47,189 nucleotides of DNA from a virus (lineage: Duplodnaviria > Caudoviricetes): IMG/VR virus record IMGVR_UViG_3300023283_000092, positions 1-47,189 of that record. One strand, written 5' to 3'. Both the position numbers and the translations under genes were made by a program. Shown here in pieces: positions 14,005-16,724 of the stretch. Position 1 is the stretch's first letter; each line of letters starts with the position of its first letter. The notes beneath the pieces were generated by a model, which saw only the letters and a list, made by a program, of their open reading frames with translations, was not told the origin of the DNA and did not search any database.

Positions 14005-14080
14005 TGGTAGCCCCTGCCGGGTTCGAACCGGCGATCTCCGCCTTGAGAGGGCGACGTGTTGCCCGCTACACCAAGGGGCC
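14005..14080 (-). tRNA. trnE: tRNA-Glu(CTC)
   Basis: Cloverleaf, loop CT-CTC-AA, ACCA end. Confidence 0.95.
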
Positions 14081-14085
14081 ATTGA

Positions 14086-14156
14086 TGGCACAGGGACTAG
14101 GAATCGAACCCAGCACGACAAGCTTTGGAGGCTCGTCTGAGCCCAGCCCTCCCTGC
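14086..14156 (-). tRNA. trnW: tRNA-Trp(CCA), miniature D-arm
   Basis: Loop CT-CCA-AA, TTCGATT, GCCA end; D-arm GGGC-TGG-GCTC. Confidence 0.85.
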
Positions 14157-14162
14157 ACAGGA

Positions 14163-14239
14163 TGGTAACGACGGCGGGGCTTGAACCCGCTAGGGACAGC
14201 TTGAAAGGCTGCCTGCTCGACCACTTTGCATTCGCCGTT
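14163..14239 (-). tRNA. trnE: tRNA-Glu(TTC)
   Basis: Loop CT-TTC-AA, ACCA end. Confidence 0.9.
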
Positions 14240-14243
14240 ATGA

Positions 14244-14320
14244 TGGGGCATCGGGCGGGAATCGAACCCGCAACCTCGACGTTGGCAACGTCGCGTTCTG
14301 GCCGATTGAACTACCGATGC
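14244..14320 (-). tRNA. trnG: tRNA-Gly(GCC)
   Basis: Loop TT-GCC-AA, CCCA end. Confidence 0.95.
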
Positions 14321-14324
14321 ATAT

Positions 14325-14399
14325 TGGGGCGGCGCTCGGGACTTGCACCCGATCCACATGGTTGGAAGCCATGCATGCTGCTCGTAACACCTGCACCGC
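14325..14399 (-). tRNA. trnG: tRNA-Gly(TCC), atypical D/T loops
   Basis: Loop CT-TCC-AA; T-loop TGCAAGT; no D-loop GG. Confidence 0.85.
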
Positions 14400-14403
14400 A
14401 TGA

Positions 14404-14482
14404 TGGTGGGTCCGGCTGGAATCGAACCAGCGTCCACCCGCTTAAAAGGCGGGAGCTCTACCTGGCTGAGCTTACGGAACCC
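14404..14482 (-). tRNA. trnK: tRNA-Lys(TTT), bulged acceptor stem
   Basis: Loop CT-TTT-AA; GGGTTCCG/CGGACCC. Confidence 0.88.
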
Positions 14483-14486
14483 ATGA

Positions 14487-14562
14487 TGGTTGGCCCGGTG
14501 GGAATCGAACCCACAACCCTCGGTTTAAGAGACCGACACTCTACCTGTTGAGTTACGGGCCG
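14487..14562 (-). tRNA. trnK: tRNA-Lys(CTT)
   Basis: Loop CT-CTT-AA; C1xA72. Confidence 0.93.
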
Positions 14563-14566
14563 TCGA

Positions 14567-14649
14567 TGGTGAGCAGGGGTGGAGTTGAACCACCACAGCC
14601 TAAGCGGGAGGGTTACAGCCTCCGGGGCTCGCCAATGCCCAGCCTACCC
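14567..14649 (-). tRNA. trnY: tRNA-Tyr(GTA)
   Basis: Loop CT-GTA-AC, variable arm. Confidence 0.92.
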
Positions 14650-14725
14650 ATTGTATGATGGCGACCCAAGCGAAGTGTCGAGAACGAGTCTCGACGTTAC
14701 GCCAGCACGGATGGTCGCCATGTGA

Positions 14726-14811
14726 TGGGGGAAGGCTGAGGAATCGAACCCCTGCCCAAGTGGGCCCCTCCGGGTTCAAACCGGATTGCCGACCATTCGG
14801 CGGAGCCTTCC
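14726..14811 (-). tRNA. trnS: tRNA-Ser(TGA), 8/4 fold
   Basis: Loop TT-TGA-AC; 8-bp acceptor, 4-bp T stem, variable arm. Confidence 0.88.
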
Positions 14812-14817
14812 CTGATA

Positions 14818-14892
14818 TGGACGCCCTGACTGGATTCGAACCAGCATTTACGTGGGTTGCAACCACGCGCCTTCCCGCTTGGCTACAGAGCG
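14818..14892 (-). tRNA. trnC: tRNA-Cys(GCA)
   Basis: Loop TT-GCA-AC, U73. Confidence 0.93.
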
Positions 14893-14899
14893 TTGGTGA

Positions 14900-14991
14900 T
14901 GGCGGCGGGGCAAGGATTCGAACCTTGGCACCCCGTTAGAGGTGGCCTCCGGTTAGCAACCGGGCACCGTTACCTGCTCGGTCAACCCGCC
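14900..14991 (-). tRNA. trnS: tRNA-Ser(GCT)
   Basis: Loop TT-GCT-AA, long variable arm, G73. Confidence 0.93.
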
Positions 14992-14998
14992 TTGAGAA

Positions 14999-15075
14999 TG
15001 GGGCGAGGCTCGGGGATCGCACCCGAATCTCCAGCGTCACAGGCTGGAATCTTGGCTGATTAGACTAGCCTCACC
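14999..15075 (-). tRNA. trnH: tRNA-His(GTG)
   Basis: Loop CT-GTG-AC, G-1:C73; T-loop TGCGATC. Confidence 0.9.
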
Positions 15076-15080
15076 ATGTA

Positions 15081-15150
15081 TGGGGCCCCCACGACGAATC
15101 GAACGCCGCTACCAGCCGTACAAAGGGTGGCTGCTCCCAGAGCTAAGGGC
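15081..15150 (-). tRNA. trnT: tRNA-Thr(TGT), miniature D-arm
   Basis: Loop TT-TGT-AC, D-arm GCTC-TGG-GAGC, TTCGATT; one C-C mismatch in anticodon stem. Confidence 0.72.
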
Positions 15151-15154
15151 CTGA

Positions 15155-15229
15155 TGGCGGAGACGAAGGGAATCGAACCCTCATAGGACGCCTCGACAGG
15201 GCGGTGCATTGCCAGTCTGCCACGTCTCC
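15155..15229 (-). tRNA. trnD: tRNA-Asp(GTC)
   Basis: Loop CT-GTC-GA, G73. Confidence 0.92.
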
Positions 15230-15235
15230 GTAAGA

Positions 15236-15311
15236 TGGTGTCTCAGGGAGGGGTCGAACCTCCGACGCGCAGGGCTTCAACCTGCCGCTCTACCTGCTGA
15301 GCTACCGAGAC
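15236..15311 (-). tRNA. trnF: tRNA-Phe(GAA)
   Basis: Loop TT-GAA-GC. Confidence 0.95.
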
Positions 15312-15316
15312 ATATA

Positions 15317-15394
15317 TGGTCTGTCGGGCAGGATTCGAACCTGCGGCAACCTGGTTCCAAACCAGGGACTCTGGCCTGACTGAGCTACCGACAG
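15317..15394 (-). tRNA. trnP: tRNA-Pro(TGG)
   Basis: Loop TT-TGG-AA, C1-G72, A73. Confidence 0.93.
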
Positions 15395-15398
15395 AAGA

Positions 15399-15474
15399 TG
15401 GTACAGGGCCTAGGAATCGAACCTAGCTGTGCCGCTTTGTAAGAGCGGTGCATCTGCCACTCTGCCAACCCTGC
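15399..15474 (-). tRNA. trnV: tRNA-Val(TAC)
   Basis: Loop CT-TAC-AA, A73. Confidence 0.92.
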
Positions 15475-15476
15475 AT

Positions 15477-15546
15477 GCAGAACACCGGGCGTGCTGCCAT
15501 TACACCACCACGTGGGCTCGGAATCGAACCGAGGTCTCCCGGCTGA
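15477..15546 (-). ncRNA. Circularly permuted tRNA-like RNA (YrlA/Y-RNA-like module)
   Basis: Order: CCGGG stem - T arm - closed mini acceptor hairpin - D arm - CCCGG stem. Confidence 0.75.
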
Positions 15547-15547
15547 T

Positions 15548-15641
15548 TGGTTGCGCCGCCCGGAATCGAACCGGGGCTAACCGCTCATCTGGCGTATCAG
15601 GGTTATAAGCCCTGTCGTGCTTCCAGTTACACTACGGCGCG
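15548..15641 (-). tRNA. Initiator-like tRNA with TAT anticodon and long variable arm
   Basis: CAGGG-CT-TAT-AA-CCCTG, C1xA72, ACCA end. Confidence 0.85.
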
Positions 15642-15719
15642 AAGCTGCGGCCCCCAGGATTTGTTGGCCAACCCCACCGTATACGCGTGGGCGAGGGCCT
15701 CACCGGCCAGGGGGCATGT

Positions 15720-15794
15720 TGGTTGCCGCCGTGGGAACCGACCCCACACTGTCCGCTTATCGGGCGGATGGTCTTCCAGTTAACCTAGGCGGCG
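15720..15794 (-). tRNA. trnI: tRNA-Ile(GAT), atypical
   Basis: Loop CC-GAT-AA, T-loop GTCGGTT, C1xA72; other stem pairs intact. Confidence 0.75.
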
Positions 15795-15798
15795 AAGA

Positions 15799-15875
15799 TG
15801 GTAGCGGTGCCGGGAGTCTAACCCGGGTTACCGGCTTATGAGACCGGTCAGAGAAACGTCCCTAGCCCTACCGCT
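15799..15875 (-). tRNA. trnM: tRNA-Met/Ile2(CAT), atypical D-arm
   Basis: Loop CT-CAT-AA, T-loop TTAGACT, ACCA end. Confidence 0.75.
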
Positions 15876-15926
15876 ATGATTCAGCCCGGCGAGTGCTGCG
15901 CCAGCAGGACCACCGGGAAGATTAAA

Positions 15927-16002
15927 TGGGACCCTCGGTAGGACTCGAACCCACACCAGCGGGGTAGAAACCCGCCGCTCTATTCCGTTGAGCTACGAGG
16001 GC
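15927..16002 (-). tRNA. trnR: tRNA-Arg(TCT)
   Basis: Loop TT-TCT-AC. Confidence 0.93.
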
Positions 16003-16006
16003 ATGT

Positions 16007-16082
16007 TGGCTGTAGCGGCTGGATTCGAACCAGCAACCCTCCGGTTAACAGCCGGGAGCTCTGCCGATTGAGCTACACTACA
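16007..16082 (-). tRNA. trnN: tRNA-Asn(GTT)
   Basis: Loop CT-GTT-AA, U1-A72, G73. Confidence 0.95.
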
Positions 16083-16087
16083 ATAGA

Positions 16088-16164
16088 TGGTGGGCGCGGT
16101 GGGAGTCGAACCCACAAGAGATCGGGTTTGAGCCGATCATGTTTGCCGATTACATCACGCGCCT
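16088..16164 (-). tRNA. trnL: tRNA-Leu(CAA), short variable loop
   Basis: Loop CT-CAA-AC, A1xC72. Confidence 0.9.
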
Positions 16165-16170
16165 ATGGAA

Positions 16171-16246
16171 TGGTGGCCCCGGAGAGATTCGAACTCTCAC
16201 CGCACAGGGTCTAAGCCTGTCGCCTCTACCGTTGGGCTACGGGGCT
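16171..16246 (-). tRNA. trnL: tRNA-Leu(TAG), short variable loop
   Basis: Loop CT-TAG-AC, A1xC72. Confidence 0.9.
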
Positions 16247-16270
16247 GTGTGCCAAGATAGCGCATTAAAA

Positions 16271-16345
16271 TGGGACCCCCGGCGAGATTCGAACTCGCAC
16301 CCGGATGGTTCGTAGCCACCTGCACGTCCATTGTGCTTCGGGGGT
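16271..16345 (-). tRNA. trnR: tRNA-Arg(ACG)
   Basis: Loop CT-ACG-AA. Confidence 0.92.
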
Positions 16346-16352
16346 ATGTCGC

Positions 16353-16401
16353 TGGATGTCTCACGAACGTTAGTGAGTGGGTGCCTCACGAACAGAGTGA
16401 G
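16353..16401 (-). repeat. Two tandem 24-25 bp hairpin+CCA units
   Basis: CTCAC-loop-GTGAG-(G/A)CA(C/T)CCA twice on minus strand. Confidence 0.75.
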
Positions 16402-16475
16402 TGGATGCCACCCCTGGATTCGAACCAGAAACTCAAGGTTCAGAGCCTCGCGTGATGCCGTTTCACCAGGTGGCA
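16402..16475 (-). tRNA. trnQ: tRNA-Gln(CTG)
   Basis: Loop CT-CTG-AA, U1-A72. Confidence 0.93.
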
Positions 16476-16497
16476 TTGATTTCACAAAACTGTGAAA

Positions 16498-16573
16498 TGG
16501 ATGGGCCGGCTGGATTCGAACCAACATCTTCGAGGTTCAAAGCCTCGCGTGTTGCCGATTACACCACAACCCA
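16498..16573 (-). tRNA. trnQ: tRNA-Gln(TTG)
   Basis: Loop CT-TTG-AA, U1-A72. Confidence 0.93.
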
Positions 16574-16625
16574 TCGGGTCGCCGACGTGGGATAAGCCCG
16601 CTCGAGCACGGAACTGCCGGCGTCT

Positions 16626-16642
16626 TTCAGTTGTCAGAAAAC
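16626..16642 (-). promoter_or_regulatory. boxA-like antitermination site
   Basis: GTTTTCTGACAACTGAA just after tRNA-Ala, resembling rrn boxA GTTCTTTGAAAACTGAA. Confidence 0.55.
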
Positions 16643-16649
16643 GCGGTCA

Positions 16650-16724
16650 TGGTGGACCACCAGGGATTCGAACCCTGACCTAACTGCTTGCAAGGCAGCC
16701 GCTCTCCCATTAAGCTAGCAGCCC
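16650..16724 (-). tRNA. trnA: tRNA-Ala(TGC)
   Basis: Loop CT-TGC-AA, G3-U70, A73. Confidence 0.95.

Follow-up and report, generated by a model that had tools for sequence, protein, structure and literature searches.

TilS-independent tRNA-Ile species with a UAU anticodon have been described in Mycoplasma mobile (PMC3575796) and in Bifidobacterium and Neorickettsia (PMC8450103). In the tRNA-Ile systems presented in the available text of these and the other papers cited here, one and the same loop serves the synthetase and the codon alike, so that decoding of AUA needs either lysidine or an altered isoleucyl-tRNA synthetase (IleRS). As reported in PMC3575796, the E. coli IleRS charges a UAU tRNA 360-fold worse than an LAU tRNA, for which its Trp905 is largely responsible; the same paper also mentions a UAU tRNA of Lactobacillus in genomes that have tilS as well. 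Here we describe a phage tRNA-Ile(UAU) in which a second arm displays GAU, the ordinary Ile anticodon, and the widespread tRNA type to which it belongs.

The window, i.e., the whole stretch of DNA that was analysed, is a phage record of 47,189 bases, in which PHROGs matches identified a terminase, portal, major head protein, DnaB-like helicase and endolysin. A search for related loci found no close relatives of the phage; its terminase matches reach only 40% identity. AUA accounts for 36 of the 384 Ile codons in 19 ORFs of the record. The tRNA genes are gathered in one array, on the strand of which no promoter-like site was called. The sequencing runs listed comprise four DNA runs of one study, with no RNA run among them; a related strain in the DNA sequencing run X4 covers the UAU tRNA gene. 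The relevant features are as follows.

14005 to 16724, minus strand: phage tRNA array (ARAGORN: 26 genes by default, 28 with a lowered threshold)
15548 to 15641, minus strand: tRNA gene of 94 nt, including an encoded CCA, with a UAU anticodon and an additional arm showing GAU (ARAGORN: tRNA-Ile(TAT))
15635 to 15641, minus strand: acceptor stem, 5' strand; C1 unpaired with A72; G2, C3 and G4 are E. coli formylation determinants (PMC9976931)
15617 to 15632, minus strand: D arm with U11-A24, which defines a subfamily of the 17 closest members
15598 to 15614, minus strand: decoding arm; 5-bp stem with G29-31:C39-41, UAU anticodon at 15605-15607
15582 to 15594, minus strand: second, anticodon-like arm; CGC/GCG stem, 7-nt loop CAGAUGA, GAU at 15587-15589
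15559 to 15575, minus strand: T arm
15548 to 15558, minus strand: acceptor stem, 3' strand; A72, discriminator A73, CCA
15720 to 15794, minus strand: tRNA-Ile(GAU), neighbour of the UAU tRNA; C1xA72, G2-C71, C3-G70, A73; C33; aberrant T loop
about 15799 to 15877, minus strand: degenerate tRNA(CAU) (ARAGORN -ps80: 'possible pseudogene'; Rfam: 29.6 bits)

The gene at 15548 to 15641 (hereafter the phage copy) is a real tRNA, scoring 48.5 bits against Rfam RF00005 (E 2e-7). It has a UAU anticodon, A37, A73 and an intact cloverleaf with all four stems and CCA; the D stem and the anticodon stem are 2 nt apart, the variable region spans 22 nt, and 9 nt lie between the end of the second loop and the T stem. 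The minimum-energy fold differs from the cloverleaf (-36.2 vs -33.9 kcal/mol), and the cloverleaf was assigned because covariation in relatives supports it.

Several other elements of the array, all on the minus strand, are unusual in their own right. Both tRNA-Leu genes (CAA and UAG; 16088-16246) combine an A1xC72 mismatch with variable loops of the short class I kind, and a degenerate Trp(CCA)-like gene at 14086-14156 falls below default thresholds. Permuted tRNA pieces lie at 15476-15546, where a 3' half with a perfect T arm precedes a 5' half containing a D-arm-like part; they have a CCGGG/CCCGG closing stem, almost no acceptor stem, a fold z of -0.14 and no Rfam match. Between Ser(UGA) and Tyr there is a strong branched hairpin (14650-14722; z -4.56), whose acceptor-like stem terminates in CCA and which drew no tRNA call from ARAGORN or Rfam, and between the two Ile tRNAs a long GC-rich hairpin (15643-15716; z -0.78).

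The first-pass annotation had taken the phage copy to be initiator-like, listing the C1xA72 mismatch, three G-C pairs closing the anticodon stem, the UAU anticodon and a variable region of about 22 nt with a CGC/GCG stem, and all of these could indeed be read from the sequence. It was also correct in noting that purine 11 is absent, this position being U11-A24, and that the array of 28 tRNAs has no canonical tRNA-fMet gene; the sole CAU tRNA, missed by ARAGORN at its default setting, is degenerate, with an A1-U72 pair and without the three G-C pairs, and is not initiator-like. Moreover, the acceptor stem of the phage copy (C1xA72, G2-C71, C3-G70, G4-C69, A73) holds all five acceptor-stem determinants for formylation given in PMC9976931, namely, a 1:72 mismatch, A73, G2-C71, C3-G70 and G4-C69. 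These fMet hallmarks are nonetheless not special to it, as they recur on elongator tRNAs of the same array: C1xA72 is also found in Ile(GAU) and Lys(CUU), and the three G-C pairs in Arg(UCU). The neighbouring tRNA-Ile(GAU), for which BLAST found no relative among cultured phages, has four of the five determinants and a D loop identical to that of the UAU tRNA, suggesting a trait common to the two Ile tRNAs of this phage. C1xA72 and the three G-C pairs are local to the tRNA array in which they occur here.

The second arm presents a different picture, since it recurs throughout the type; its GAU loop, the feature with the highest conservation, was overlooked in the first-pass annotation. A scan of phages by anticodon, T loop and ACCA only, in which the extra arm was not asked for, returned at least 122 loci, of which 74 were parsed as UAU tRNAs (70 distinct: 33 short, 2 intermediate and 35 long). 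Among the phage scan matches listed, 34 of the 35 long tRNAs form a hairpin whose 7-nt loop has GAU at its centre, whereas shuffles averaged 2.6 such cases and never exceeded 8 of 35. Conversely, when the scan was made by arm and T loop with no requirement for the anticodon, UAU was found in 120 of 120 matches (117 by script, 3 by eye). In a covariation alignment of 51 of 74 diverse representatives, the three pairs of the core stem are held in 50, 51 and 51 of the 51 sequences, with two-sided changes in 4, 27 and 8, respectively. Judged from these alignments, the extra arm is a conserved part of the tRNA type, composed of a covarying 3-bp stem and a GAU-centred 7-nt loop.

The geometry of the arm was equally regular. 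In 44 members found without requiring the arm, the consensus of its loop is Y, A (42/44), G, A, U, a variable base and A (37/44), the first A being the equivalent of position 33; at the equivalent of position 37, U occurs in 22 and A in 13. The end of this loop lies 9-10 nt from the T stem in all 44, which matches the anticodon-loop spacing of 31 out of 33 short UAU tRNAs, whereas the spacer between the UAU arm and the GAU arm varies from 5 to 12 nt. After the extra arm come 6-7 nt, which in many cases form a class I variable loop; in the Actinomyces members the extra loop is CUGAUAA, which we take to be the usual Ile(GAU) anticodon loop, and a class I variable loop again follows it. The acceptor branch of the type is 7/5, with A73. 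A two-arm molecule thus runs as a canonical tRNA from its 5' end to the UAU loop, and again as a canonical tRNA from the GAU loop to its 3' end. A relaxed UAU loop in the long tRNAs was only partly seen: the 31:39 pair of the UAU arm is present in 25 of 34 long vs 33 of 33 short tRNAs (p 0.002), and A38 in 16 of 34 vs 21 of 33, a difference that is not significant (p 0.22).

To describe the type as a whole, the loci from several scans were pooled with the phage copy, giving 262 distinct UAU tRNAs parsed among the matches listed; 222 of these have a long variable region, and 220 of the 222 have the GAU hairpin, it being noted that several of the search patterns required the GAU arm. An intron between the two loops was considered and rejected, as its excision restores all five anticodon-stem pairs in only 2 of the 220 members, the mode being three of five. 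Five further loci (L175, L237, L238, L202 and L267), outside the parsed set, are UAU tRNA-like, with long variable regions, no GAU loop and unusual D arms; four others (L548, L553, L569 and L585) are GAU-arm members with non-standard T loops.

The two-arm type is widely distributed. A GTDB scan returned at least 120 loci, 92 of which were parsed as members, from 11 phyla, located in tRNA arrays or alone; among the matches listed, the type thus occurs in phages, in tRNA arrays and in bacterial genomes of 11 phyla, and it makes up about half of the sampled phage UAU tRNAs. Cultured carriers include Stenotrophomonas phage DLP6 and Actinomyces oris, and BLAST with one member as query gave matches, assigned by their tRNA-Ile annotation, in 43 records of Vibrio phages and in one Acinetobacter phage. 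Ten Xanthomonas plasmid records (H71-H80) gave unannotated, unparsed partial matches covering 72-77% of the query at about 85% identity. Few forks were resolved in a tree of 105 short sequences, from which only organism labels and the nearest subfamily were taken.

With this family at hand, the homologue search proposed in the first-pass annotation could be read: relatives were found, and the initiator marks are not conserved among the 220 members. Among the matches listed, C1xA72 occurs in the phage copy alone (1/220), any 1:72 mismatch in 4 and G1-U72 in 130, and the three G-C pairs 29-31:39-41 are present in 15; the 2-4 string of the acceptor stem (G2, C3, G4) likewise belongs to the phage copy only, among the 220 members parsed from the matches listed. 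Purine 11 is found in 2 of the 127 members that could be scored for it. C1xA72 and the three G-C pairs are both missing from all 16 closest relatives, and Stenotrophomonas phage DLP6, the sole cultured-phage BLAST match of the phage copy, keeps the D arm and the extra arm but has G1-C72 and lacks the three G-C pairs. A metagenome scan for A38 and C39-41 members, which is biased to C39-41 (26 of 39 loci parsed), produced 14 distinct sequences, neither mark being present in any of them, and a metagenome scan for near-identical copies of the phage tRNA found none. The exact three-G-C UAU arm, used as a search pattern, matched 10 viral loci, none of which was a tRNA, and was discarded.

It follows that the earlier proposal of an alternative initiator that escapes VapC is not supported as a property of the family, the two marks being so rare and missing from the 16 closest relatives. 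The phage copy by itself could still have turned into such an initiator: it would accept Ile or Met, undergo formylation and enter the P site at start codons AUA or AUG, and it might evade initiator-specific nucleases; we consider this very unlikely. The joint presence of the five formylation determinants and the three G-C pairs, its being alone in C1xA72 among the 220 listed members, and an array without an fMet gene all speak for it, as do the reports that formylation is independent of the amino acid (PMC9976931) and that an unmodified UAU reads AUG on E. coli ribosomes (PMC3575796). However, R11:Y24 is missing from the phage copy, neither mark appears in the closest relatives or in the 14 metagenome sequences, and MetRS identity depends on the CAU anticodon according to PMC9976931. 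Within the array, Ile(GAU), which is unable to read AUG, has C1xA72, G2-C71, C3-G70 and A73, and the two marks are also borne separately by Lys(CUU) and Arg(UCU). All 19 main ORFs start with ATG, GTG or TTG, most after a purine-rich stretch, an observation that does not test AUA starts. A 1:72 mismatch may weaken EF-Tu binding of the phage copy, which is a point against the elongator reading.

The first-pass annotation had offered a TilS-independent Ile tRNA as its other option, and this one gained support from the genomes that carry the type. tilS is kept in 18 of 20 carrier genomes and is missing from Actinomyces G001 and G002, each of which has only two CAU tRNAs. Across 151 genomes of the order, tilS was found in 143, none of which has the two-arm type, and the three carriers are all without tilS. 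Of the other five tilS-negative genomes, tilS is partial in two, while the remaining three, which are probably incomplete, contain three CAU tRNAs but no UAU tRNA; a missing tilS match alone can therefore mislead. In 91 genomes of the family, four lack tilS, and all four are carriers with fMet, Met and the two-arm tRNA only, among the matches listed. Extension to 401 Actinomycetales genomes revealed seven carriers (G001, G002, G043, G077, G234, G362 and G402), in all of which tilS is absent and the only two CAU tRNAs are fMet and elongator Met. The CAU tRNA that was retained lies beside tRNA-Thr(GGU) and has G2-C71/C3-G70, and the body of the two-arm tRNA of this clade closely resembles the Ile2(CAU) of tilS-positive relatives. 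The site of the loss could also be located: a Zincin_2 gene stands directly before hpt in the four carriers checked, and tilS lies between the two in the tilS-positive G245. Weak matches to the tilS model in G234 and G362 were GMP synthase and were rejected. Two genomes with short UAU tRNAs keep tilS; in G334 (C3:1222-1252), tilS and a short UAU tRNA are accompanied by no more than two matches to the CAU pattern. As all the losses fall in one clade, they count as one evolutionary event; no report of tilS loss in Actinomyces was found in the literature searched.

The meaning of AUA in these organisms was then read from 800 kb of each of three carriers, using a frame filter against antisense reading frames. 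AUA persists in the tilS-less carriers (103 of 359,000 codons in matched genes), and at 46 aligned sites, 34 of them from one genome, it corresponded to Ile in 20, Val in 10.5, Met in 4.5 and Leu in 3; a first alignment on half the data had given Met at 8 of 30. Ile is less dominant here than at AUU (255/369), and in the tilS-positive control G226 AUA aligns with Ile at 12 of 27 sites. This pattern is what would be expected for a working AUA-Ile elongator and argues against a Leu or Met identity. Given that the carriers lack both tilS and tRNA-Ile2(CAU) and that their AUA codons align mainly with Ile, in the Actinomyces clade the type serves as an elongator for AUA that does not depend on TilS.

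The same data bear on the idea that the phage copy resembles class II tRNAs and is charged by LeuRS or MetRS, placing Leu or Met at AUA in the manner of the nematode nev-tRNA-Ile(UAU). Its long variable arm and A73 would suit such an identity, and the C. elegans nev-tRNA-Ile(UAU) was leucylated in vitro (PMC3333845). Against it stand, as indirect evidence from the Actinomyces clade, the few Leu (3/46) and Met (4.5/46) correspondences at AUA, to be compared with Leu at 98.5 of 115 CUA sites, the 6-7 nt that follow the arm and often form a class I variable loop, and the closeness of the Actinomyces-clade body to Ile2(CAU) of tilS-positive relatives. We regard this identity as extremely improbable.

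Taken together, the phage copy is probably an elongator tRNA-Ile for AUA, TilS-independent and belonging to the widespread two-arm type, its expression and charging with Ile being predicted from its architecture and its relatives. In the mechanism that we propose, the UAU arm, with U33 and a 5-bp stem, would pair with AUA on the ribosome, while the GAU arm, placed at an anticodon-like distance from the T stem, would act as an identity element for the host IleRS. IleRS reads G34-A35-U36 well and U34 poorly, and the GAU loop would supply the missing determinant. The two arms may swap stacking on the D stem, such that the GAU loop swings into the anticodon position, and the A at the equivalent of position 33 may keep this loop from decoding. 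That the GAU arm is an IleRS identity element is, in our estimate, about evenly balanced; that the molecule is a natural two-anticodon tRNA with split labour, the GAU loop being read by IleRS and the UAU loop by the ribosome, falls slightly short of an even chance.

In the proteobacterial carriers, IleRS has Trp at the wobble-site motif in 5 of 5 checked, and none has the Arg or Lys of the M. mobile route. In the Actinomyces clade, four translated Actinomycetaceae enzymes are without the type 1 zinc finger, and the Trp argument therefore does not apply there; a type 2 IleRS of P. megaterium is reported to be stricter than type 1 in its reading of the anticodon (PMC13752280). The GAU loop differs from a genuine Ile loop in having mostly U at the equivalent of position 37 and A at that of 33, which counts against the mechanism; for comparison, the S. 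aureus IleRS1 is said to use U33 (PMC13752280), and t6A37 is given as a determinant for bacterial-type IleRS (PMC9976931).

It is also conceivable that the phage copy does not decode at all and is a decoy or a decayed gene that binds a nuclease, an acetyltransferase, IleRS or Fmt, the GAU loop serving as bait or as a folding element. Such a bait could target an anti-tRNA defence enzyme, and the Ile/Met block of the array is degenerate, with C33 and an odd T loop in Ile(GAU) and a pseudogene-like CAU tRNA. The tRNA-Ile(UAU) of L. plantarum has reportedly been found uncharged, which would favour a decoy, as would the retention of tilS by most carriers. Furthermore, six allo-tRNA(UAU) variants gave no suppression in E. 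coli (PMC5389517). On the other hand, the phage copy has four intact stems and CCA, no candidate AUA reader other than this type was found in the Actinomyces clade, where AUA is still in use, and the solitary chromosomal copies share no common protein neighbour in the ORF listing of 40 loci. We therefore judge a decoy or decayed gene to be unlikely, and retain the elongator tRNA-Ile as the preferred reading.

If the division of labour is real, a tRNA that splits the two jobs would constitute a third route to AUA decoding. It would allow phages and mobile arrays to decode AUA in any host, without TilS or a matching IleRS, and it would have let the Actinomyces lineage delete tilS, which is a way to lose a normally essential gene. 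The design would also be portable, in that the meaning of a codon could be changed without changing the synthetase.

In the literature searched, the coverage of which excluded studies of the Lactobacillus tRNA-Ile(UAU), Hamashima 2016 and supplements, no description of the GAU arm was found, and the portions available of PMC8007984, PMC13602947, PMC11571807 and PMC5766645 have nothing on it. Comparison with tRNA-fMet gives a mixed result: the phage copy shares C1xA72, G2-C71, C3-G70, G4-C69, A73 and the three G-C pairs, but differs in having UAU rather than CAU, no R11:Y24 and a 22-nt variable region with an extra arm, and its initiator marks are not conserved in the two-arm family. The nev-tRNA-Ile(UAU) (PMC3333845) likewise combines UAU with a long variable arm; however, as described there, it is eukaryotic, derived from tRNA-Leu and leucylated, whereas the two-arm type has a fixed GAU loop and AUA aligns with Ile. 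The allo-tRNA(UAU) of PMC5389517 is similar in its UAU, its long arm and its occurrence in soil bacteria, and the paper mentions forms with a five-stem junction; by its account, these tRNAs have an 8/4 or 9/3 acceptor branch, a tRNA-Sec-like D arm and mostly G73 or U73, in contrast to the 7/5 branch and A73 seen here. The Lactobacillus tRNA-Ile(UAU), the sequences of which were not part of this comparison, resembles the type in occurring in genomes that have tilS as well, as many carriers do. Overall, the closest known kind to the two-arm type is the tRNA-Ile(UAU) of M. mobile, Bifidobacterium and Neorickettsia. The available text of PMC3575796, in which the word 'variable' does not occur, makes no mention of an extra arm in the M. 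mobile molecule. The two share UAU and A73, and each stands in for tilS and Ile2(CAU), which in the present case applies to the Actinomyces clade. They differ in how charging is solved, since M. mobile relies on Arg865 of its IleRS, whereas the two-arm type has a GAU arm and an IleRS with Trp in all five carriers checked.
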